Sequence record: KT184315.1
Source: Enterobacteria phage KhF3
Direction: 5' to 3' (one strand)
DNA: 64,000 bases
The notes beneath the pieces are model-generated. The model was not told the origin of the DNA. It worked only from the letters and a program-made list of their open reading frames with translations, and did not search any database. Positions 4,591 to 34,767 of this stretch are shown piece after piece; the stretch's first letter is position 1; each line of letters opens with the position of its first letter. Position numbers and translations under genes: made by a program.

Positions 4591-6975
4591 TTAAGCAGTT
4601 CTTACCCAAGCCATTAACTTGTAGAACTGGTTAGTAACACTGAATGCTGAACCAGAACCTGTACCACCAGTGTTACCACTAACTGTATGAGTGTGAGCAC
4701 CGATACCTACAGAGTGGGTGTGAGCACCAGTGTTACTTGTAGTACCAGACCATGTGTGTGTATGGTTACCAGTTGTGTTAGTGTTAGGGAATTTGTTATC
4801 TTTTCTATCAAGCCAGTCAAGAGTTCTTGTCTTGCTGTTGCTAACAGTTGTGTAACCATACTGAGCATCACCACCATTAACCAATAGCAGACCTAAGTGG
4901 TGAGCATGGTTACCCGCAGCACTTGTTGTACCACTTACAGTGTGGGTGTGACCACCAGTACTATTAGTGCTCTTCGTACCATAATCAAAAGATGAAGTGG
5001 TAGCAGAGAAGCTGTGAGTGTGTGATGGTAAGTTACCAACAGCTAATGTTACAGAATCTGAACCACCAGTTGTAGCAACATCTGAACCGTTAGCTGCTGC
5101 GATTCTGATAGTTCTACCAACACCATTGTTCAGGTACGTCCAAGTTAGACCAGGGAGTGCTGTATTAGGGTTAACATTACTGTTAAACCACGTTACAATA
5201 CCAACTGGATAGATTTTGTTAAGGTCTGTAGAGTCACTAATTGCTGTTGCAATTTTCTGGTCAGTTTCAGCTTTAGTGTATGCACCAATCTCTGAAGGGG
5301 TTGGTTTAAAATCAGTTGTGTAAAGCTGTGCCTCTCCGGCATAGTCACCATTTTTGTCATAGGCATAGGTAAATGTTGCCAGTCCATTTGAGCCATACAC
5401 AAAAGAGATTCCTCTTGCATGTGCAGCAGTCTTATTAGAGTGAGCAACATGAATTGCCAATTCTCTCAGTCCACTAGCAACCTGATTGTTTCTGACAAAA
5501 CCTGAATATCCAAGATTAAAACCTGAAGGGTTTTCAAGGTTATCTACAGAAACAGTCATTAAGGATTGGTTTAATAACTGAGTTTTAACAAAATATCTAG
5601 CATCTAAGTTAGACCAATCAGAAGGTTGAACTTGACCAGTAATGGTTAGGTTCTTATTAGCCTTAATCGCTGAAGGCATAAGAGTAATTTGAGTCCCAGA
5701 GTAGCTGTTGTTTAATGCCACATCAGTAGAATTTGTGCCACCCACACCTACCCACCACCTAGATACATTCTGGGTATCAACACCACGGATATATTGTGGC
5801 TGCCCCTGTGTTAAGTTTCTTAATACTACGCCTTCATTATTTGATACAATAGTTTGCACATTCACAAATGTGTTAGCAACATTAAGCTTAGGTAGGTTAC
5901 TCAAAGTTGCTGCCGGAATATATCTAGAGTCAATATTAGTCCAATCCGAAGGTTGAACTTGACCAGTGATTCTGAAGTTCTGGTTGACTGAGATATAGCC
6001 ATTATCAAGTCTGATATTTGAACCGTGTACATAGTTGTGTAGCAGCACAGAGGCTGTGTTATCCCCGTTCCCTACATACCACCTGTTAGTGTTCTGAGAG
6101 TCAACACCCTGAATGAATAGTGAGCTAGTTGTTGCATTTTTCAACCTTAAAGCAGCACTGTCACTGATAATAAGTAGGTTTCTGCTAAACGTGTTAGTGC
6201 CAGTGAAATTGTTATTCGCAGCTAACTGTGCAAATCTCTGATTAGCTACTGTCTGAGTAAAGTATCTAGCATCTAAGTTAGAGAAGTCAGAAGGTTGAAC
6301 TTGACCAGTGATTGCTAAAGACTTATTAACAGAGACATTACTTGCAACAGTCAAGGCTGAGTTGTATTTGTTATTGTACAGCTTTACTTCGTCAGAGCCA
6401 TTACTACCAATACCAACCCACCATCTAGCCGAGCCATCTAGGTTTACACCTTCGATATATTGTGCATTATTTGCATTTTGGTTTCTAAGGCGAAGTAAGT
6501 TAGCATCACCTTGAATATTTTGTGTTCCAGAGAATGTGTTTGTGATAGCTAGTCTTGCATACCTTGCATCATTCTCTTCATTAGTTCTCATCCCAAGTTC
6601 ATTAGGGCTTGGCTTATTCAGAGTATGATAAACAGTTGCCGACCTTGAAGTGTCTGCAATAGTCAGTTTAAGGCCATTTGCGTTGATTTTAAAAGTCTTT
6701 AAAACATCCCCAATAGTAACCTCAGAAGAGCCTGTTGGGTTAAAGACTACCTTACCACCATAAAGTAACTTAACAATCCCTAAATCACCCGTCATAGTAC
6801 TACCGGCAATCTGAACAAATCTTTCAAGTTTAAAAGATGCTAAGAAATCTTGATAGGTCATTCGACGGTCTTCATCACCTAGCATTTCAGGTCTCTTTTT
6901 AACCCTGACATGAAGAAGGTCATCTGAACGGATTGTATCGATTGAGTTTAATTCACTCAACTTGTAATCTGCCAT
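4591..6975 (-). CDS. Tail fiber protein (long)
   Basis: 794 aa; three internal ~100-aa repeats each ending ITGQVQPSDW/FxNxDxRY; C-terminal His-rich GNHTHT...GAHTHSVGIGAHTHTV motif shared with adjacent fiber. Confidence 0.75.
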   Translation of the reverse strand: MADYKLSELNSIDTIRSDDLLHVRVKKRPEMLGDEDRRMTYQDFLASFKLERFVQIAGSTMTGDLGIVKLLYGGKVVFNPTGSSEVTIGDVLKTFKINANGLKLTIADTSRSATVYHTLNKPSPNELGMRTNEENDARYARLAITNTFSGTQNIQGDANLLRLRNQNANNAQYIEGVNLDGSARWWVGIGSNGSDEVKLYNNKYNSALTVASNVSVNKSLAITGQVQPSDFSNLDARYFTQTVANQRFAQLAANNNFTGTNTFSRNLLIISDSAALRLKNATTSSLFIQGVDSQNTNRWYVGNGDNTASVLLHNYVHGSNIRLDNGYISVNQNFRITGQVQPSDWTNIDSRYIPAATLSNLPKLNVANTFVNVQTIVSNNEGVVLRNLTQGQPQYIRGVDTQNVSRWWVGVGGTNSTDVALNNSYSGTQITLMPSAIKANKNLTITGQVQPSDWSNLDARYFVKTQLLNQSLMTVSVDNLENPSGFNLGYSGFVRNNQVASGLRELAIHVAHSNKTAAHARGISFVYGSNGLATFTYAYDKNGDYAGEAQLYTTDFKPTPSEIGAYTKAETDQKIATAISDSTDLNKIYPVGIVTWFNSNVNPNTALPGLTWTYLNNGVGRTIRIAAANGSDVATTGGSDSVTLAVGNLPSHTHSFSATTSSFDYGTKSTNSTGGHTHTVSGTTSAAGNHAHHLGLLLVNGGDAQYGYTTVSNSKTRTLDWLDRKDNKFPNTNTTGNHTHTWSGTTSNTGAHTHSVGIGAHTHTVSGNTGGTGSGSAFSVTNQFYKLMAWVRTA

Positions 6976-8211: not shown

Positions 8212-16236
<8,025 letters not shown>

Positions 16237-27777: not shown

Positions 27778-27941
27778 AGGAGAAACCACAATGTACGTCA
27801 GAGACATACTGTATAAGTCTTCTTATAAAGTATAGCTCTGTAAAAAAGCCCTGTCTAAAAATACTCTTCGGTAGCGAAAGGAAGAATACTTATAGCAGGG
27901 CATTATTATTATTTTAATTGAGAGAGAGTAAAATAACTTGG

Positions 27942-28014
27942 AGAATCCGAAGGGACTCGAACCCTTATAAACCTGTTTTGCAGACAGGAACATAGCCATT
28001 TCTGTCACGGATTC
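27942..28014 (-). tRNA. tRNA-Cys (anticodon GCA)
   Basis: Manual fold: T-arm AAGGG-ACTCGAA-CCCTT (plus view), 7-bp acceptor, anticodon loop CTGCAAA, U73, CCA encoded. Confidence 0.7.
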
Positions 28015-28021
28015 AAATTGG

Positions 28022-28111
28022 AGGAAGATACCAGACTTGAACTGGTACACCGATTTCTCAGCTACTGGCAGTTTAGCAAACTGCTCCCTTACCTTTTAGG
28101 GTTAATCTTCC
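28022..28111 (-). tRNA. tRNA-Ser (anticodon GCT), class II
   Basis: T-arm ACCAG-ACTTGAA-CTGGT, 21-nt variable arm, anticodon loop TTGCTAA, perfect 7-bp acceptor. Confidence 0.7.
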
Positions 28112-28112
28112 A

Positions 28113-28847
28113 TTATTTCTGTAATGCGTTCTTCATTTCTGGTGTTGCAATAGTGTCAATCACACCAGTTTTACAAGCATCATCAAACCAGTCTGGTAAG
28201 ATACCTGCTAAGAACCCATTGATATTCGTTTTAAGGTACTCTGCAATAAGAGCAGCTTCTTCTTCAATCATCTGCACAACTTCATCTGCATAAGCTGTAA
28301 TCTTCGAAATACCTTCATTAATCTTACTAACAGCTTGGTTAGCTAAATCAGAAATAGTATCAAGACCTTTGTCAATAGCATCTTGTAAGTCACTTAATAC
28401 ATCATTAACGACATCTAGTGCACTGTTAATTGTGTCAATAGCTTTTTGACCATATTCTGTAGCAACGCCCATAATACCACTAAACGGTGTACAGCCAACT
28501 TGTTCCCCTGCTGCACCCATAACATTGGAATACCCCTTTGCTACCTGCATACGTGATGAAAACTCATCAATAGACTTTTGACCATAGTCTGTTAAGGTCT
28601 TAGTAGTCGCTGTAGTGCTTGTAAGGCTTGTTGTAAAGCTGTTTAGAAGGACTGTTGTAAGTCCAGCAGCAACAAGTTTCTCCTTCATTGTAGGGTCTGT
28701 TACAGAGCTAATAGAACTTACAAGTGATGTAGAGGCAGCTACGGTTCCACCGAGAACTGCTGCACCAGTAATAAGGGGATTAGAAAACCCTCTACCGGTT
28801 TTTAAGAGATTAAAAATCTCCTTACCTTGTTCTGTCATCTCTTTCAT
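28113..28847 (-). CDS. Hypothetical protein (Ser/Thr-rich) embedded in tRNA region
   Basis: Start moved to internal ATG at 28847 because track start 28910 overlaps tRNA-Phe. Confidence 0.4.
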   Translation of the reverse strand: MKEMTEQGKEIFNLLKTGRGFSNPLITGAAVLGGTVAASTSLVSSISSVTDPTMKEKLVAAGLTTVLLNSFTTSLTSTTATTKTLTDYGQKSIDEFSSRMQVAKGYSNVMGAAGEQVGCTPFSGIMGVATEYGQKAIDTINSALDVVNDVLSDLQDAIDKGLDTISDLANQAVSKINEGISKITAYADEVVQMIEEEAALIAEYLKTNINGFLAGILPDWFDDACKTGVIDTIATPEMKNALQK

Positions 28848-28865
28848 TAAGCACCTTTGTAATTG

Positions 28866-28940
28866 GTAGTCCAGTGGGATTTGAACCCTCTTCTCATGTT
28901 TTTCAGACACGCGCTTTAACCATATAAGCTACTTGGACTA
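28866..28940 (-). tRNA. tRNA-Phe (anticodon GAA)
   Basis: T-loop ATTTGAA (plus view), 7/7 acceptor pairing, anticodon loop CTGAAAA. Confidence 0.65.
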
Positions 28941-28948
28941 TAAATTGG

Positions 28949-29021
28949 GGTGACCTACGGGATTTGAACCCGTATAGACCATGTTCACAGCATGGGTCAT
29001 TACCATTTATGATAAGGCCAC
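28949..29021 (-). tRNA. tRNA-His (anticodon GTG)
   Basis: Perfect T-stem and anticodon stem, loop CTGTGAA, discriminator C73, CCA encoded. Confidence 0.7.
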
Positions 29022-29055
29022 ATTTAAGGACTCTCGTAAGAATCCTTAGAAGTGG

Positions 29056-29128
29056 CAGCGGCATAAGGATTTGAACCTTAATAGGACAGCTTCAGAGACT
29101 GTTGCATTGCCAGTTATGCTATACCGCT
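29056..29128 (-). tRNA. tRNA-Gln (anticodon CTG)
   Basis: T-arm TAAGG-ATTTGAA-CCTTA, anticodon loop CTCTGAA, G73. Confidence 0.65.
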
Positions 29129-29136
29129 AAATTTGG

Positions 29137-29212
29137 TACTCCATATCGGATTCGAACCGATACATAACACAGATTTTAAGTCTGGCCTCTCTGCCAATTG
29201 GAGTAATGGAGC
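29137..29212 (-). tRNA. tRNA with anticodon TAA (Leu codon UUA) but class-I length
   Basis: Perfect T-arm ATCGG-ATTCGAA-CCGAT, A73, CCA encoded; anticodon loop CTTAAAA; 7-nt variable region only. Confidence 0.55.
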
Positions 29213-29217
29213 ATTGG

Positions 29218-29290
29218 CGGGGGATGTTGGAATTGAACCAACTTCTTCGATTTCAAAGACCGAGGTTTTAACCTTGTAAACTAATCCCCT
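29218..29290 (-). tRNA. tRNA-Gln (anticodon TTG)
   Basis: T-arm GTTGG-AATTGAA-CCAAC, anticodon loop CTTTGAA, G73. Confidence 0.65.
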
Positions 29291-29298
29291 TTAAATCT

Positions 29299-29856
29299 TT
29301 ACTTTCTCAGTGGATGAATAAAGAATGCCAACATAACTCTTTCCCTTGAGAATGCTCTTTCTTCTGGGACAACACTTTTTAGTTTCCATCCAATATAAAT
29401 TCTCCAGTAAAACTGTTTACCAAAGACTTTAATTGATGGGATAAAGGCGAATAATCCCCAAGCATTACTGTTCCACATTAGGAGATAACCAGTCTGATTA
29501 TCTTCAGGGTCAGAACTTACGTTGATATTACCTTTCCACTTAGTAACATCTTTTACATCTCTTCCTAATACATGGTAAGAGAAGTTATAAGCTTTGTTTC
29601 TCCAGAGCCATCCGACTCTTTGCATGTAGACGCCTAGTTTACCAATCCATCTAATATTAGCCCATCTTTTAACGTGACCTTCATCACCATCAATTGGGTT
29701 GTCATATGTCTCCATCCATCTGAACCCGAAAGGTAAGTGTCCTTTCTTCTCACTGTAGAATGGAACTACAAAAGGTGCTAAGATAACTGCTAAGATTGCT
29801 GCAAATGGTTCTAACAAAGCTAAGAAAATCCATGAAGCATACTTTAAGTATCTCAT
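29299..29856 (-). CDS. Hypothetical membrane protein
   Basis: 185 aa; N-terminal TM WIFLALLEPFAAILAVILAPFVV; Trp-rich. Confidence 0.4.
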   Translation of the reverse strand: MRYLKYASWIFLALLEPFAAILAVILAPFVVPFYSEKKGHLPFGFRWMETYDNPIDGDEGHVKRWANIRWIGKLGVYMQRVGWLWRNKAYNFSYHVLGRDVKDVTKWKGNINVSSDPEDNQTGYLLMWNSNAWGLFAFIPSIKVFGKQFYWRIYIGWKLKSVVPEERAFSRERVMLAFFIHPLRK

Positions 29857-30095
29857 TGTCTAATCCTCGTAAGGAGGTAAATGTTATTATTCGTTTCTAA
29901 ACCTTCTGGTAAAACTATCTCAAAAATAACACTCTTCAGATGTCTACCACCAAAACAATCACGTATAAATCTTTCTACTCTAGCGGGGTCACATAAGTAT
30001 CCCACTTTTAAGAAAATGTGGTGTTCAACACCAATGACCCTGACAAACTCAATACTCTCACAGTTTTCATGTTCAACTACTGTTAATGTTTGCAT
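29853..30095 (-). CDS. Hypothetical protein
   Basis: 80 aa ORF coupled to downstream gene. Confidence 0.4.
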   Translation of the reverse strand: MQTLTVVEHENCESIEFVRVIGVEHHIFLKVGYLCDPARVERFIRDCFGGRHLKSVIFEIVLPEGLETNNNIYLLTRIRQ

Positions 30096-30115
30096 AGTAT
30101 CACCTTTTTATCTGG

Positions 30116-30188
30116 CGCAGGATAAGGGATTCGAACCCCTATTAACAGCTTCGTAGACTGTTGCTCTTTCCATTTGAACTAATCCTGC
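30116..30188 (-). tRNA. tRNA-Arg (anticodon ACG)
   Basis: 7/7 acceptor pairing, T-loop ATTCGAA, anticodon loop CTACGAA. Confidence 0.7.
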
Positions 30189-30196
30189 AAAATTGG

Positions 30197-30271
30197 TGTT
30201 CCAAGACGGATTCGAACCGTCACTAATACAAGGTTTGAGCTTGCATCCTCTGCCAATTGGGATACTGGAAC
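30197..30271 (-). tRNA. tRNA with anticodon CAA (Leu codon UUG) but class-I length
   Basis: Perfect T-arm GACGG-ATTCGAA-CCGTC, A73, anticodon loop CTCAAAC, 6-nt variable region. Confidence 0.55.
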
Positions 30272-30275
30272 ATGG

Positions 30276-30347
30276 TACTCACTAAAGGACTTGAACCTTT
30301 TTCTTCATCTTGTAAGGGTGATGTTTTACCATATAAACTAAGCGAGT
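30276..30347 (-). tRNA. tRNA-Val (anticodon TAC)
   Basis: T-arm AAAGG-ACTTGAA-CCTTT, anticodon loop CTTACAA, A73. Confidence 0.65.
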
Positions 30348-30443
30348 ATGAAAGAGGTCTGGAGTTGTGCCGCTAACTCAACTCCGTGGAATTTGTTACG
30401 GTCTTCAGTTGACTCAAAGCGGTCTTTCACTTGACCTCTGAAT
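30348..30443 (-). ncRNA. Structured non-tRNA spacer (candidate small RNA or processing element)
   Basis: No T-loop signature; hairpin GGAGTTG-N11-CAACTCC at 30361-30385; long-range GAGGTC/GACCTC; contains ACGGTCTTC motif. Confidence 0.3.
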
Positions 30444-30446
30444 TGG

Positions 30447-30519
30447 TGCTCCCACAAGGACTCGAACCCTGATAAGTTGCTTACAAGGCAACCGTAATAA
30501 CCAATTATACGATAGGAGC
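30447..30519 (-). tRNA. tRNA-Thr (anticodon TGT)
   Basis: Perfect anticodon stem GTTGC/GCAAC, loop CTTGTAA, A73. Confidence 0.7.
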
Positions 30520-30529
30520 ATTAATTTGG

Positions 30530-30601
30530 AGCATCCAGAGGGAATCGAACCCTCAACCTCAGTTTGGAAGACTGTAATTTTCCCGTTTAAACTATGGATG
30601 C
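30530..30601 (-). tRNA. tRNA-Gly (anticodon TCC)
   Basis: Perfect acceptor and T-stem, loop CTTCCAA, U73. Confidence 0.7.
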
Positions 30602-30610
30602 ACTAATTGG

Positions 30611-30683
30611 TGGAGTCACCGAGAATTGAACTCGGTTCCCAAGTTTGCAAAACTCGAATTTTAACCATATAAACTATGACCCC
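30611..30683 (-). tRNA. tRNA-Ala (anticodon TGC)
   Basis: G3:U70 wobble pair in acceptor stem (Ala identity element), A73, anticodon loop TTTGCAA. Confidence 0.75.
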
Positions 30684-30692
30684 ATTGTTTGG

Positions 30693-30765
30693 TACAGGTG
30701 GAGGGAATTGAACCCATCGTCTTACTGATTAAGAGTCAGCCGCATAACCATTTTGCTACACCTGC
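30693..30765 (-). tRNA. tRNA-Lys (anticodon CTT)
   Basis: T-loop AATTGAA with weak 3-bp T-stem, anticodon loop CTCTTAA, A73. Confidence 0.6.
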
Positions 30766-30775
30766 ATTAATTTGG

Positions 30776-30849
30776 TACACCTAGAGAGATTCGAACTCAC
30801 ACTGAGCAGATTCTAAGTCTGCTGCCTCTACCAGTTGGGCTATAGGTGC
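30776..30849 (-). tRNA. tRNA with anticodon TAG (Leu codons CUA/CUG) but class-I length
   Basis: Perfect anticodon stem GCAGA/TCTGC, loop CTTAGAA, A73, 5-nt variable region. Confidence 0.55.
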
Positions 30850-31104
30850 ATTAAATCTTTTTAGAGAACTTCTAAGAACCTAAGCAACAAGGCTCCACAA
30901 CAAGCTGTAATAACCTTAGAAGCCCTCTAAAAAGACCTAAATAGGTCTTTGCATAGTCTTGTTTAATCCGGTGACTAGAACCTTTGGAGAGCTTGATATT
31001 ATCTCTTCTCCGTGACACCTACTAGGTGCTTTGACAGTGTACGACAATACACGAGGGATAAACCGACAATGCGAACAAGCATGGACGGAGTAAATCTTAT
31101 TAGG

Positions 31105-31192
31105 CGGTAAGTAAAGGAGTCGAACCCTCACCGTATCTCTACAGTGGCAACTGTTTTCAAGACAGTTTGGCTACCATTAGCCGCTACCTACC
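31105..31192 (-). tRNA. tRNA-Ser (anticodon TGA), class II
   Basis: Perfect anticodon stem ACTGT/ACAGT, loop CTTGAAA, 20-nt variable arm, G73. Confidence 0.7.
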
Positions 31193-31208
31193 CCTAATAA
31201 GACTTTGG

Positions 31209-31288
31209 CATGGGACGGAGGAGTTGAACCCCTTTGAAACGGTTTTGGAGGCCGTTGCTCATGCCTTAGAGTCTTAACATCGTCCCAT
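31209..31288 (-). tRNA. tRNA-Trp (anticodon CCA) with enlarged D-loop
   Basis: Perfect 7-bp acceptor, G73, anticodon loop CTCCAAA; about 7 extra nt in D region. Confidence 0.6.
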
Positions 31289-31433
31289 ATTATAATTCGA
31301 AGCTTACCCTGTTATCTCAACACTGTCAAGCTTCTTCTCAGATTATTTACATGTTCTGGAAAACATGAGATACAGACCACCTCCCTACAGGAAGACCCGC
31401 TAAGGCCGTCTAAGTAATCTGCTAACTATTTGG

Positions 31434-31507
31434 TACACCCTACAGGATTCGAACCTGTAACTAACGATTTAGAAGACCGTTGCTCTATCCAATTGAACTA
31501 AGGGTGC
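31434..31507 (-). tRNA. tRNA-Arg (anticodon TCT)
   Basis: Perfect T-arm ACAGG-ATTCGAA-CCTGT, anticodon loop CTTCTAA. Confidence 0.7.
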
Positions 31508-31756
31508 ATTATCTTTAAAGACTCTCTTAGAAAGCCCTTAAAGATGCCCACCTTATTAATCATACCGTGGGCGAGTACGCCAAATTCTTTGATGAGGGAT
31601 TGGAAGACCTCACTGGTGTTTAGCCTATCAAGCTACTGCCAGAAAAACATTGTCGTTTGCATTTATTTTAAATTTGCAAAATAGACGCTACGCAACGAAA
31701 ACTAAGGTTACTATAAAGTAGTCACATCTCAATGTCAACAACTTTATTGAAATTGG

Positions 31757-31829
31757 TACTGGTAGGTGGAATCGAACCACCGATGTTCCCTTATCAGGGG
31801 AGTGTTATAACCTTCTTAACTATACCAGC
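31757..31829 (-). tRNA. tRNA-Ile (anticodon GAT)
   Basis: Perfect T-arm GGTGG-AATCGAA-CCACC, anticodon loop CTGATAA, A73. Confidence 0.7.
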
Positions 31830-31833
31830 TTGG

Positions 31834-31907
31834 AGGTTCAGATGGGAATCGAACCCACATTCATAGGGCTTATGAGACCCTTGCATTACCTTATCTGCGA
31901 CTGAACC
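31834..31907 (-). tRNA. tRNA-Met (anticodon CAT)
   Basis: Perfect 7-bp acceptor, anticodon loop CTCATAA, three G-C pairs in anticodon stem. Confidence 0.65.
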
Positions 31908-31988
31908 AGAATAAGTACCCTAGTTAGAGAAACTGTTGAGTGGGTGTTTCCAGCCGCGCAGGTGTTTCTCAGTTAAGGGTGAATTTGG

Positions 31989-32061
31989 TAGAAGTGGAGG
32001 GATTCGAACCCATCGCCTGTCAGATTAAAAGTCTGCCGCATCACCATTCTGCTACACTTCC
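31989..32061 (-). tRNA. tRNA-Lys (anticodon TTT)
   Basis: Anticodon loop CTTTTAA, A73, T-arm similar to the other Lys tRNA. Confidence 0.65.
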
Positions 32062-32065
32062 ATTA

Positions 32066-32209
32066 AATTATCTTTGTAGATAAGCTACCCAGACTTGCTT
32101 AAGGTCTGTAGCGATGTGCCTTTTTGGGTTTAAATCTAGAATTTACCCTTTCACCCTTTGTGGTCGCATACTCACAGGTAAGCTTAATAACTTATCTACA
32201 AAGATAATT
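32066..32209. repeat. 19-bp perfect inverted repeat (AATTATCTTTGTAGATAAG) with arms about 106 nt apart
   Basis: Left arm 32066-32084, right arm 32191-32209 (reverse complement identical). Confidence 0.7.
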
Positions 32210-32234
32210 ACCAGACCGTTGTTTATCATCTTAA

Positions 32235-32307
32235 GTGCTACCATTACACCAACTCGACATCTGCCGAGTGAAGGAATCGAACCTTCGCCTTTTCTTTACC
32301 GGAGAAA
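32235..32307 (-). ncRNA. tRNA-like element with all tRNA arms present in circularly permuted order (anticodon GGT)
   Basis: Minus-strand order: anticodon arm TTTCT-CCGGTAA-AGAAA, 4-nt variable, T-arm GAAGG-TTCGATT-CCTTC, 3' acceptor ACTCGGC, linker AGAT, 5' acceptor GTCGAGT, U8, D-arm GTGT-AATGGTA-GCAC; bracketed by 8-bp helix (plus 32213-32220 with 32331-32338). Confidence 0.4.
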
Positions 32308-32524
32308 TAGATTGTTTAAGTTTTGCTGTAAACGGTCTTCTGTAAAATTGTTGAGCCAGACCAAGTTTTATAAATTTTTTCAAAATTAAATTGGCTTGAA
32401 AATATCATACGTACTTGCTGAATTTGGTCTTCTGCTCCTTTAAAGAATACTCGTAAGAACTCTTTAAGGGAGGGGCTAAAATAGCCCTCTCAAACATCAT
32501 TTTGAAATACTTATTATAATTTGG

Positions 32525-32599
32525 CGGTTACGAAGGGATTTGAACCCTCATCATCTCCCGTGACAGGGGAGTATTTTAACCAGATTAAACTACATAACC
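32525..32599 (-). tRNA. tRNA-Asp (anticodon GTC)
   Basis: Perfect anticodon stem CTCCC/GGGAG, loop CTGTCAC, T-loop ATTTGAA, CCA encoded. Confidence 0.7.
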
Positions 32600-32608
32600 T
32601 TTATTTGG

Positions 32609-32693
32609 TGTGCCGTGTAGGAGTCGAACCTACCGAGTCTCAATGACAAGGGATTTACAGTCCCCACCGCTACCATCTACGGGATAACGACAC
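32609..32693 (-). tRNA. tRNA-Tyr (anticodon GTA), class II
   Basis: Perfect T-arm GTAGG-AGTCGAA-CCTAC, 15-nt variable arm, anticodon loop CTGTAAA, A73. Confidence 0.7.
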
Positions 32694-32705
32694 ATTTAAA
32701 TTTGG

Positions 32706-32779
32706 CGGTTAGTCAGGGATTCGAACCCTGTGCCATTCGCTTAACAGGCGACCGCACATACCTTATGTGCTTCCTAACC
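32706..32779 (-). tRNA. tRNA-Asn (anticodon GTT)
   Basis: Perfect T-arm CAGGG-ATTCGAA-CCCTG, anticodon loop CTGTTAA, G73. Confidence 0.7.
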
Positions 32780-32856
32780 TTAATACATTGCCAGACCGTG
32801 TTTTTTCTTTTATCCGCAAAAAGTATTTTGTTGCTGAATACGGTCTTCTGCAAAAT
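32780..32856 (-). ncRNA. Repeated hairpin spacer element (CAGAAGACCGT ... ACGGTCTGG family)
   Basis: 7-bp stem AGACCGT/ACGGTCT enclosing about 40 nt that begins ATTCAGCAA; same arms recur at 32211/32331, 32356/32426, 32943/33008. Confidence 0.35.
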
Positions 32857-32859
32857 TGG

Positions 32860-32933
32860 AGGCGGGTGCAGGAGTCGAACCTGCCGATACCATGCTAATG
32901 AGACATGTGAGACGCCCTTTCTCTATACCCGCA
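32860..32933 (-). tRNA. tRNA with anticodon CAT (Met- or Ile2-type) and unpaired 1:72
   Basis: Perfect T-arm GCAGG-AGTCGAA-CCTGC, D-stem GAGA/TCTC, anticodon loop CTCATTA, first acceptor pair mismatched. Confidence 0.55.
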
Positions 32934-33027
32934 ATTCTTAATGACCAGACCAAATCTATTCTTTGTCCGATTTACCTTCAGATGAATAAGATTAAGTTTG
33001 CTGTAATTGGTCTTCTGTCAAAACTGG

Positions 33028-33102
33028 CGTTCCAGAAGGGATTTGAACCCTCAGATATCCACTTTGAAAGAGTGGTGACTTTACCATTTTGTCTACTGGA
33101 AC
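33028..33102 (-). tRNA. tRNA-Glu (anticodon TTC)
   Basis: 7/7 acceptor pairing, perfect anticodon stem, loop CTTTCAA, G73. Confidence 0.7.
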
Positions 33103-33112
33103 ATTAATTTGG

Positions 33113-33186
33113 TCTCTGTTGGAGGACTTGAACCTCCGGCCTTACCGCCCCAAACGGAACGCTCTACCAAGCTGAGCTAAACAGAG
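33113..33186 (-). tRNA. tRNA-Pro (anticodon TGG)
   Basis: 7/7 acceptor pairing, perfect T-arm GGAGG-ACTTGAA-CCTCC, loop TTTGGGG, A73. Confidence 0.7.
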
Positions 33187-33304
33187 ATAAACTTTTCAAA
33201 CTCTATGTAACCACTTTAACATTATTTTTTAGTGGTTGTCAAGAACTTTTTTAAAATATTTTTCAGTATCTTAGAAAAGCTCTCATTTCGTTTCTATGTA
33301 GAAC

Positions 33305-33333
33305 ATATTAAAGGGTATTAAACACATTGTCAA
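33305..33333 (-). promoter_or_regulatory. Sigma70-type promoter (TTGACA-17-TAATAT) reading into the tRNA array; embedded in a 9-bp-stem hairpin
   Basis: Minus strand AAGGGTATTGACAATGTGTTTAATACCCTTTAATAT; -35 at 33333-33328, -10 at 33310-33305. Confidence 0.5.
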
Positions 33334-33351: not shown

Positions 33352-34767
33352 TTACCAGATGTAACGGTCAATCATTACTGCTTTGAGCATTACGCTGGTT
33401 GGGTCAAACTTCTCACCACCAAGCAGAGCTTTTAAAGTGGCTGGAGAGAACCCTGATACCATTGCTACACCGTTATCCTTAACAGACACTTCGCAAGTAC
33501 CACTACGGTTTGCTAAGTACCAGAATACCAGTTGTGGCATTTCGTATCCAGCTTTTTTGTACTTACTACGAATTGCTTCAAAGTTTGTACGACCATTTGC
33601 ACCGTCAACCTGATTGAACTCCATATCAGAGAAGATGATAAGCTTACTTGGCATATCTTTCTGAGTCAAGTTGTTTCTCTTACCTGTCTCAAGAATGCGG
33701 TCAAAAGCTGCTTGTAAGTTAGTTGAACCGTATTCAACATGACGCATTACCTGACGATGACGGTTTCGTAAATCACCACTCAGTTCAATGAAGTGAGGGT
33801 TTGTTGAATAAACCATCAACTCATTCTTAAAGCAACCTGTATTACGTTCTGCTACATACAATGCAAGTGAAACACCAATATCAAGAGCAGTAATTGAACC
33901 AAAATTCACCCAAGACATTGAACTTGAAACATCAGACATACATAGAATGTTTTCACCCTCTGCCATCCAGTTTGGTAGTGCTTTCCACTGCTCATTAGCA
34001 ACATCTGCATTACCATACTTAACAGATTTAATCACATCGTATGGGTAAACAGCACCAGCATTAATCTTAGTCTCACCCTTTGATAAGGACTCGATGTAAG
34101 CTTTGTAGCGCTCTCCATCTTTACGGTTAAACAGTTTTTGGTAACGTGCAGCAGCAAGTGAAGGAATCTTGCTGTAATCAATCTTACCAAACTCATTAGC
34201 AGAGATTTTTTGCTCAACTGTATCAGATAGTGCAGACAACAGTGTGCGGTACTCTTTCTCACTCAAGTTGGCAAACTTGCAGAAACGTTTTACAAACTGT
34301 TTGTGGCGTGGTTTTACTCGTGGCAACCACTTAGCTGCTAAACCTGCTGTTGCAGGGTCTAGTAATGCTGCTTCTAAATGTTTGAAGGCATCTGTCTCGA
34401 AACGAGTACCTACGAAGATTTTGAAGTCATCAAAGCGACCAAGTTCTGCAATCTTATCCATAATGCGAAGAACCTGTGTAGGTTCTAAAACTTTATCTTC
34501 AATCGCTTGAAGCAAAACAGTTCTGAAGGCTTTACGCTCACCCATACCTTCTCGTACATCTCGCATATGCAGTAAAATACGAACTGCAACATCAACATCC
34601 TCACGCAAAGCTTTGTAGAACAAGTCTGGTAAGATTTCTACATTGCTACGGCTTGAACCAGCAGCTTTGTAAAAATCTACAAGAGCAGACATTGATGAAG
34701 TATGGTTTACAGCACCATTTTCAGTTCGACCTGCATGAAGGTGCGCATGTTTAAATAACTCGCTCAT
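33352..34767 (-). CDS. vWA-domain protein (MIDAS motif DxSxS) with helical N-terminal domain
   Basis: CMSDVSSSMS (DxSxS) followed by beta-strand LIIFSDMEF; 471 aa. Confidence 0.5.
   Translation of the reverse strand: MSELFKHAHLHAGRTENGAVNHTSSMSALVDFYKAAGSSRSNVEILPDLFYKALREDVDVAVRILLHMRDVREGMGERKAFRTVLLQAIEDKVLEPTQVLRIMDKIAELGRFDDFKIFVGTRFETDAFKHLEAALLDPATAGLAAKWLPRVKPRHKQFVKRFCKFANLSEKEYRTLLSALSDTVEQKISANEFGKIDYSKIPSLAAARYQKLFNRKDGERYKAYIESLSKGETKINAGAVYPYDVIKSVKYGNADVANEQWKALPNWMAEGENILCMSDVSSSMSWVNFGSITALDIGVSLALYVAERNTGCFKNELMVYSTNPHFIELSGDLRNRHRQVMRHVEYGSTNLQAAFDRILETGKRNNLTQKDMPSKLIIFSDMEFNQVDGANGRTNFEAIRSKYKKAGYEMPQLVFWYLANRSGTCEVSVKDNGVAMVSGFSPATLKALLGGEKFDPTSVMLKAVMIDRYIW

Follow-up and report, generated by a model that had tools for sequence, protein, structure and literature searches.

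Candidate Y-RNA-like small RNAs encoded beside a Ro60-like protein gene in the tRNA array of Enterobacteria phage KhF3

Particles made of a Ro60 protein and Y RNAs are found in animals, some bacteria and a few phages, and their role is still debated. The bacterial Y RNA YrlA, whose gene is adjacent to that of Ro60, has the layout V arm, T arm, acceptor-like hairpin and D arm between paired ends (Chen et al. 2014, PMC4201824). Among phages, the Ro60 protein of the Thermus phage phiLo binds the adjacent Y-like RNAs Yrl1 and Yrl2 as well as host PNPase (PMC12135203; PDB 9KOP, 9L5Y). In the Felixounavirus Bas63, the gene for the Ro60-like protein gp130 lies directly upstream of tRNAs, and deleting it renders the phage sensitive to the Ppl defence system; the authors surmised that some of the tRNA genes are possibly Y RNAs, none of which was identified (preprint 10.1101/2024.10.10.617714). 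Here we analyse a 64,000-nt stretch of Enterobacteria phage KhF3 (KT184315.1; the window hereafter), a Felix O1-like phage (Felixounavirus) in whose tRNA array four spacers, elements A-D, form a family of repeated hairpins next to a gene for a Ro60-like protein.

We consider it likely that these spacers are genes for one family of small non-coding RNAs, putative dedicated partners of the Ro60-like protein and hence a phage counterpart of the Ro60/Y-RNA pair. In our reading the family is a new class of Y-RNA-like molecules that has another recognition module and goes with a divergent clade of Ro60-like proteins. The likeness of the protein to Ro60 is already known from some annotations and the Bas63 preprint, as are phage Y RNAs for canonical TROVE proteins. 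Two facts that go beyond a first-pass annotation of the window are decisive for this reading, namely the neighbouring Ro60-like gene and a permuted tRNA-like module in the longest element.

Four hairpin elements in the KhF3 tRNA array

On the minus strand of the window ARAGORN predicts 26 tRNA genes (27939-33186), and the 1.3 kb around the elements are 98.8% identical to Escherichia phages ECP2307, CL1 and others. The first-pass annotation had seen at least four spacers in this array with a common closing stem, and this holds with coordinates that agree within 2 nt. The nonamer CAGAAGACC occurs exactly four times in the 64 kb, always on the minus strand (33009-33017, 32842-32850, 32426-32434 and 32334-32342), against 0.51 copies expected from shuffles, and none of 100 shuffles contains four. 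Every copy is followed 50-120 nt to its 3' side by GGTCTGG (32945-32951, 32791-32797, 32356-32362 and 32211-32217, in the same order).

The elements so delimited, all on the minus strand, are three short Y-RNA-like hairpins, A (32945..33017), B (32791..32850) and C (32356..32434), and a long YrlA-like member, D (32211..32342). Each is closed by a paired core of AGACC plus two to three more pairs: AGACCAA/UUGGUCU in A (33007-33013 / 32947-32953) and C (32424-32430 / 32358-32364), AGACCGU/ACGGUCU in B (32840-32846 / 32793-32799) and AGACCGUU/AACGGUCU in D (32331-32338 / 32213-32220). The CG/GU versus AA/UU difference among these stems is compensatory. The two loop starts reported earlier are also correct, UUACAGCAA in A (32998-33006) and D, where the motif UACAGCAA lies at 32323-32330, and AUUCAGCAA in B (32831-32839) and C (32415-32423); their common form is (A/U)CAGCAA.

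All four elements lie 335-1141 nt downstream of the end of the Ro60-like gene, on the same strand. The claim that each begins directly after the CCA end of a tRNA stands for A, which is 7 nt past tRNA-Glu and 11 nt ahead of tRNA-Met, and for B, which is 6 nt past tRNA-Met and 11 nt ahead of tRNA-Asn; it fails for C, 87 nt past tRNA-Asp, and for D, 13 nt past C. A 50-aa open reading frame at 32231-32383 (minus) overlaps elements C and D and is probably spurious.

The fold z-scores of the single elements (minimum free energy) are weak, from -0.6 to -3.2, the latter being that of element B; thermodynamics alone is therefore insufficient to settle whether these spacers are RNAs. Apart from chance-level matches (Dictyostelium class I RNA, 20-24 bits, and a partial tRNA match), Rfam scans of the element region at permissive thresholds assigned the elements to no family, Y-RNA and YrlA included. 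A naive scan for the motif plus a 6-bp stem within 450 nt gave many false positives in the window and was replaced by a covariance model, R1, built from 26 short family members, together with a matched background. This search, which the first-pass annotation had proposed as a check, recovers only elements A-D in the window (A 44.6 bits, E 9e-8; B 46.3 bits, E 4e-8; C 33.9 bits, E 3e-5; D 23.0 bits, over its 5' part only), besides numerous matches across related loci. The next match in the window scores 12.7 bits, and the three weak matches of about 12 bits (E 2.4-3) are off the gene strand and devoid of the CAGCAA loop.

An RNA family linked to a Ro60-like gene

The gene directly upstream of the RNA/tRNA array (33352..34767, minus) encodes a 471-aa protein predicted to combine a helical ring with a vWA domain bearing a MIDAS motif. 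It matches Pfam DUF2828 and DUF7788 and belongs to PHROG 850, 'RNA-binding protein'. An AlphaFold2 model built on 38 homologues (pLDDT 89.7) was compared with the PDB using Foldseek: the top 11 matches are all full-length Ro60/TROVE proteins, followed by isolated vWA domains only. The best match is Xenopus Ro60 (2i91; E 1.3e-8, TMq 0.66), and the others at the top include Deinococcus Rsr (2nvo) and the phiLo Ro60 (9l5y, 9kop). The MIDAS motif (D279xS281xS283, T349, D381) is invariant in the 38 homologues. An hhalign comparison of the family with a canonical phage Ro60 gave a weak but sensible match (49.5% probability, E 1.7e-4) over the region of VYPYDV/VHPINV and DVSGSM. Judged from the model, the protein is a Ro60-like ring by fold and, by sequence, a remote relative at best. 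From the description in the preprint, its gene is very probably the orthologue of Bas63 gp130.

At least 709 GenBank phage records encode a DUF2828/DUF7788 protein, usually annotated as 'vWFA protein', 'RNA-binding protein' or 'hypothetical', and in some cases already as 'Ro-like RNA binding protein'; the Pfam description places the DUF2828 domain in eukaryotes as well. Genes for RNA repair or processing are often found near the Ro60-like gene (RtcB 'tRNA-splicing ligase', RNA ligase, exonuclease and phosphoesterase; L082, L086, L088 and L089). For instance, RtcB is encoded near the gene of Listeria phage LMSP-25 (L082), and an RNA ligase gene adjoins that of Pectobacterium phage CBB (L088). 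L086 is a Staphylococcus phage, and in L089, an Enterococcus phage, a 'hypothetical protein' CDS (2823-2939) is annotated over an RNA element.

R1 was searched against the window and 173 other loci with homologues of the 471-aa protein, with E cut-offs of 1-10 depending on the search. Of 216 reported matches, 213 lie on the strand of the gene, the exceptions being the three motif-less window matches mentioned above; outside the window the count is 209/209. Among 80 IMG/VR loci, whose homologues are mostly 38-47% identical to the KhF3 protein (five near-identical Felixounavirus loci reach 98%), R1 at E up to 1 found 94 matches, 94/94 on the gene strand and none inside the gene, with 81 of them within 1 kb and 89 within 1.6 kb of it; 53 of the 80 loci have at least one match with an E-value of 0.1 or below. 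Ten GenBank phages, including Listeria LMSP-25, Bacillus Tsamsa, Mycobacterium Lolly9, Enterococcus VRE9_1, Klebsiella FBKp34 and the Staphylococcus phage, yielded 25 matches (25/25 on the gene strand), and a second, independent set of 80 genome-assembly loci yielded 79 (79/79). Copies may sit 1-3 kb from the gene, and their number per locus is highest in Aeromonas LAh_6, which has seven. The hosts of the phages with the family extend from enterobacteria to Listeria, Bacillus and Mycobacterium. Three R1 matches also lie just upstream of a Ro60-like homologue in a 425-kb contig binned as Candidatus Pacearchaeota archaeon, DPANN (JBBACR010000001.1; L105); this contig may derive from an archaeal virus or a giant phage, or reflect a binning error.

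The core common to these RNAs consists of a 7-9 bp stem formed by the two ends of the RNA, (U)(U)(A/U)CAGCAA in single-stranded form, adjoining the 5' arm on its 3' side, an A-rich stretch ahead of the 3' arm and an unpaired G after it. The base of the stem is usually A-U, G-C, G-C and its interior varies. The four KhF3 elements all have the 7-bp terminal stem, (A/U)CAGCAA, the A-rich 3' side of the loop and the unpaired G. In many of the other loci the arms are entirely different (e.g., GGUUCC/GGAACC, GGAUCG/CGAUCC and AGGAUAG/CUAUCCU) and remain complementary: in 45 matches outside the seed, 99.7% of the cells are paired and all seven pairs have changed on both sides (137 cells), so that the stem sequence varies freely in related genomes and pairing persists. 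As a control, sliding the structure by 1-3 columns reduced pairing in the same matches to 38-44%. CAGCAA is present in 44-45 and the unpaired 3' G in 43 of these 45.

The motif is also concentrated around the gene. On the gene strand, the density of [AT]CAGCAA is 0.93/kb within 1 kb downstream and 0.66/kb within 1 kb upstream of the gene, against 0.17-0.27/kb on the opposite strand and in other places. Of 115 motifs close to the gene, 60 have a stem of 7 bp or more, compared with 42 of 296 background motifs (p = 2.6e-14). The earlier suggestion that these spacers represent a structured RNA family and not random sequence is thus strongly supported, both by covariation and by recurrence in very distant phages. 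In the family, a conserved RNA structure is combined with an invariant single-stranded motif, position and strand are tied to a gene for a Ro60-fold protein, and the inserts are modular, with tRNA mimics recurring among them. As it is always found beside and on the same strand as this gene, its members are most likely the Y-RNA-like partners of the protein. A description of the family was found neither in Rfam 15 nor in the searchable literature.

Between the parts of the core the insert is variable, being short in A, B and C and a permuted tRNA mimic in D. In one phage group (IMG/VR loci L009 6471-6720, L011, L013, L018, L022, L025 and L026) the second element has an insert of 230-260 nt, with blocks conserved between these loci and no tRNA features; this is a large structured domain on the family scaffold. 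The element at 4734-4833 of L045 has a tRNA-like insert of normal topology, which ARAGORN calls as tRNA-Thr at 4753-4824, and its closing stem resembles an extended acceptor stem.

A permuted tRNA-like module and the comparison with Y RNAs

Element D folds into the closing stem and four inner hairpins, all on the minus strand. In RNA order these are a variable-arm-like hairpin, UUUCU CCGGUAA AGAAA (32291..32307); a textbook T arm, GAAGG UUCGAUU CCUUC (32270..32286); a 7-bp acceptor-stem-like hairpin, ACUCGGC AGAU GUCGAGU (32252..32269), with a loop where a tRNA has its ends; and a D-arm mimic, GUGU AAUGGUA GCAC (32235..32249). ARAGORN makes no tRNA call on element D as it stands, and the Rfam tRNA model matches it only partially (22 bits). 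On a tandem duplicate of the element, ARAGORN detects a complete cloverleaf across the junction, which makes element D a circularly permuted tRNA-like module with its ends at the position of the anticodon loop. Elements A, B and C have no such module. We considered a canonical tRNA at this position and rejected it, as there is no contiguous cloverleaf with free acceptor ends and one arises only after circular permutation.

In an alignment of element D from seven Ounavirinae (Felixounavirus, Suspvirus and Mooglevirus), 97% of the cells are paired. The variable-arm-like hairpin is 91% paired, the stems of the T-arm and D-arm mimics are invariant, and the T-arm loop differs by one base in one sequence. 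The acceptor-like helix is 100% paired and three of its seven pairs have changed on both sides, with variants such as ACUCGGC/GUCGAGU, ACACG/CGUGU and ACCCUUC/GAAGGGU; this compensatory change indicates selection on D as an RNA. Permuted mimics like D are also found in the unrelated loci L024, L048, L069 (three copies) and L075. The GenBank labels at the position of element D are tRNA-Thr, tRNA-His, tRNA-OTHER, hypothetical protein or none. The 70.7-kb record MG065664.1, 'Campylobacter phage A132', matches element D at 98.6%, as do E. coli and Salmonella Felixounaviruses, a pattern that suggests a mislabelled or contaminated record.

The KhF3-type RNAs and YrlA (RF02553) are architecturally akin. 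Both adjoin, on the same strand, a gene for a ring-type protein, which in KhF3 is Ro60-like by predicted fold; in both, the ends of the RNA pair into a stem, which in YrlA carries the presumed protein site; and the V-T-acceptor-like-D order is reproduced exactly in element D and its relatives in L024, L048, L069 and L075. YrlA has shorter, mimic-free siblings (YrlB) alongside, to which elements A, B and C would correspond. The two classes differ in the neighbouring gene, which for the KhF3-type RNAs is DUF2828/DUF7788 rather than TROVE/vWA_Ro60, and in the recognition motif, the KhF3-type RNAs having the conserved (A/U)CAGCAA after an A-G-G-based stem instead of the GNCGAAN0-1G of YrlA. When the RF02553 model was run on relatives with a tRNA mimic, it scored 38.9 bits at 9497-9612 and 28.7 bits at 6816-6928 of L069, and 26.7 bits at 4715-4780 of L075, all under the gathering score of 69, as is the positive control. 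The latter, the canonical locus of mycobacteriophage McGee, has an RF02553 match of 36.1 bits just upstream of gp233. At 9497-9612 of L069, UAGGACUA...UUUCAGCAA...UAGUCCUG surround the T arm, the acceptor hairpin and the D arm. R1 in turn finds zero matches in 18 kb of the McGee Ro60/YrlA locus.

The phiLo system likewise consists of a phage Ro60-fold protein with small hairpin RNAs encoded beside it, the binding of which has been shown for phiLo. Its Ro60 is a canonical TROVE protein, its RNAs were picked out by a CGAA motif in a bulge, and no tRNA-like module has been reported there, whereas the KhF3 RNAs have another motif and are interleaved with tRNA genes. As regards Bas63, the four spacers are better Y-RNA candidates than the tRNAs proposed for that phage, and they differ from these in being non-tRNA spacers with a motif common to distant phages. 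Metazoan Y RNAs and nematode sbRNAs share with the family a conserved stem of the RNA ends, which binds protein in their case, and variable internal loops as modules; they differ in their bulged GGUCCGA/UUGACC binding helix, their transcription by RNA polymerase III and their lack of a tRNA mimic, and neither sequence nor Rfam models show any similarity between them and the KhF3 elements.

The first-pass annotation had also pointed to the stable RNAs of T4. T4 rnaC/rnaD and T5 RNAI, RNAIII, RNA1, RNA2 and others are indeed small stable RNAs within phage tRNA arrays, some of them annotated as tRNA-like, and the analogy breaks down at the level of the family. R1 has no credible match in the rnaC/rnaD tRNA region of T4 or in 42 kb of T5 with eight annotated stable RNAs; the best scores, 20.8 and 18.1 bits, are on the wrong strand or in CDS and have no CAGCAA. 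The T4 and T5 stretches that we inspected have no DUF2828 gene. These RNAs were accordingly rejected as relatives.

Alternatives, a candidate mechanism and other structured spacers

Several observations weigh against a Ro60/Y-RNA-type partnership. The 471-aa protein matches neither Pfam TROVE (PF05731) nor vWA_Ro60 (PF25045), both of which are matched by the canonical phage Ro60, McGee gp233, used as a control. PDB searches with its sequence and with the family profile returned nothing relevant and no Ro60 chain, so that the likeness to Ro60 is one of predicted fold only. The probable orthology with gp130 derives from the description in the preprint. On the RNA side, the window gives no RF02553 match with an E-value of 10 or less, and family members do not conserve the Y-RNA motif GNCGAAN0-1G: CAGAAG in the window is a near-match with one extra base, and the corresponding flank is A-rich and variable family-wide. 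About a third of the homologous loci have no R1 match (25 of the 80 IMG/VR loci, Campylobacter F367 and phage CBB), and either the partnership is not universal or R1 misses variants. Covariation in the seed is circular, since seeds were picked for their stem, and the alignment of the non-seed matches was fitted to R1; this circularity does not extend to the invariant unpaired residues or to the statistics on strand and position. Everything beyond RNA structure and co-location is inferred.

The elements might instead be cis-acting operators, sites on its own or adjacent transcripts that the Ro60-like protein, or some other factor, would bind so as to autoregulate translation or stability, with no RNA acting in trans. 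Same-strand adjacency is what an element in an untranslated region would show, and in some lineages copies of about 40 nt precede the start codon by 7-60 nt (~42-nt copies at L007 4949-4991, L012 1759-1800, L014 2854-2895, L049 4902-4948 and L070 4901-4944), which fits a cis-regulatory role, weighs against the partnership and suggests possible autoregulation through the same candidate site. The KhF3 elements, however, lie downstream of the gene, past two promoter-like sites and among tRNAs; a locus may have up to seven copies, some of them 1-3 kb away, and an operator has no need of complete tRNA-like modules. We regard a purely operator role as unlikely, and operator and trans roles could coexist. 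We give equally little credence to the idea of small phage RNAs that work independently, as antisense regulators or decoys for example, and that share an ancestral scaffold and are co-inherited with the gene without being bound by its product. Structure and conservation prove an RNA and not its partner, which leaves room for this idea; yet the pairing of gene and RNA is kept in phages of Proteobacteria, Firmicutes and Actinobacteria while the other neighbours change, an invariant helix end with a single-stranded heptamer is typical of a protein-recognition site, the variable parts have no conserved sequence for base-pairing with a target, and the Ro60 fold of the neighbour together with YrlA-like tRNA mimicry matches the known rule for Ro60 and Y RNAs.

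Of the three options named in the first-pass annotation, small RNAs survive, while processing signals and mobile mini-elements both appear unlikely. The former would be structural spacers or guide hairpins for RNase III, E or P in the tRNA precursor, functionless after cleavage. The tight spacing of A and B, 6-7 nt past one tRNA and 11 nt ahead of the next, would suit this, as would the tRNA arrays (a tRNA within 5 kb) present beside the gene in about 22 of 60 related loci and in the Klebsiella, Bacillus, Enterococcus and Listeria phages. At least 20 loci, though, have elements and no tRNA within 5 kb, so the elements track the protein gene and not tRNA arrays. Moreover, such elements are missing from 33 tRNAs in the arrays of T4 and T5 and from the remaining 20 tRNA junctions of the window, and an invariant CAGCAA and embedded tRNA mimics are unexpected in a spacer; taken together, this makes mere processing signals highly improbable. 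Scarcely credible, in our view, are miniature mobile elements, or decayed remnants of tRNAs or homing-endonuclease genes, bounded by inverted repeats. Such an origin could account for the inverted terminal arms, for four near-identical arm cores in one genome, for copy numbers that differ between related phages and for the tRNA-derived sequence in D. It is at odds with the absence of dispersed copies and the near-absence of copies on the opposite strand: the four are clustered in 0.8 kb on one strand with no further copies in the 64 kb, and the 213 of 216 same-strand matches lie beside a single gene family. The arms, too, differ between copies within a genome and yet stay complementary, no target-site duplications were seen, and the acceptor-like helix of D evolves by compensatory change.

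In the proposed mechanism, A-D would be transcribed with the tRNAs from two promoter-like sites at 33213-33333. Both are sigma-70-like and score 10/12 in a consensus scan: TTGACA-17-TAATAT between the Ro60-like gene and the RNA/tRNA array (33305..33333, minus), and TTGACA-18-TAAAGT with a TG extension just upstream of tRNA-Pro (33213..33242, minus). The total of such sites in the region is not above that of shuffles, and activity of the two is presumed, for the site at 33305-33333 from its position only. Between the elements, the minus strand showed no terminator-like site. The elements, spaced 6-13 nt from their neighbours, would be excised by tRNA-processing enzymes, with RNase P cutting at the 5' end of the next tRNA, and an endonuclease and 3' exonuclease trimming them back as far as the stem. 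The end of the stem, CAGCAA and the 3' G would form a candidate docking site for the Ro60-like ring, and the variable inserts may be adaptors or decoys through which the ring reaches other factors, element D possibly engaging tRNA-recognising enzymes or nucleases. By analogy with the Ro60-Y RNA-PNPase complexes of Deinococcus and Salmonella and with the phiLo Ro60, the particle might remodel RNA decay or repair during infection, and this could underlie the anti-defence phenotype reported for Bas63 gp130. The RNA-repair neighbours (RtcB, RNA ligase) and the frequent tRNA arrays point the same way.

A wider proposal, which we hold to be plausible rather than probable, is that DUF2828/DUF7788 proteins are a second, very widespread Ro60-like branch with Y-like RNAs of their own, recognised through the stem and CAGCAA and carrying swappable inserts, in programmable particles. 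If so, this branch would range over phages of Gram-negative, Gram-positive and actinobacterial hosts and reach eukaryotes too; its inserts would comprise short loops, permuted and normal tRNA mimics and 250-nt structured domains, and its particles would divert RNA decay, RNA repair or tRNA-targeting immunity in the host, thereby accounting for the ability of gp130 to counter Ppl. A protein family much larger than that of the known particles would gain a concrete candidate RNA partner along with a candidate binding site, and candidate RNAs would be at hand for a protein shown genetically to counter defence in a Felix O1-like phage. That tRNA mimicry appears in both of two Ro60-type systems, with no detectable sequence similarity between their RNAs, speaks for a central functional role of the mimic. 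The findings also correct the annotation of spacers that are now unannotated or called pseudo-tRNAs or short ORFs, and existing phages and knockouts allow a direct test of the system in E. coli.

Other spacers in the array also show signs of structure. The inter-tRNA spacers at 31908-31985 (z -4.3) and 30348-30443 (z -3.8), both minus, fold better than shuffles. The latter includes 30399-30427, where the first-pass annotation had placed a related motif; GAAGACC does occur there on the minus strand, in a different hairpin. We rejected it as a fifth member of the family on account of its closing stem (AGAGGUC/GACCUCU) and the lack of both CAGCAA and an R1 match. The stretches 31212-31286 and 31508-31812 (minus) contain a weak match to the Rfam tRNA-Sec model (23 bits), not called by ARAGORN, and also sub-threshold tmRNA and permuted-tmRNA matches (29 and 16 bits), which overlap tRNA-Ile; all of these may be pseudo-tRNAs or chance matches. 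Finally, the 149-nt spacer directly 3' of element D (32062-32210, minus), in which R1 has no match, has a closing stem of about 24 bp and inner hairpins (minimum free energy -48.3 kcal/mol, z -7.2). In Shigella phage Sf14, the homologous spacer has retained the long stem in a changed sequence (UCUUUGUAGAUAAG/CUUAUCUACAAAGA vs UCUUUGCAGUGAC/GUUACUGCAAAGA), and the KhF3 spacer is probably another structured RNA.

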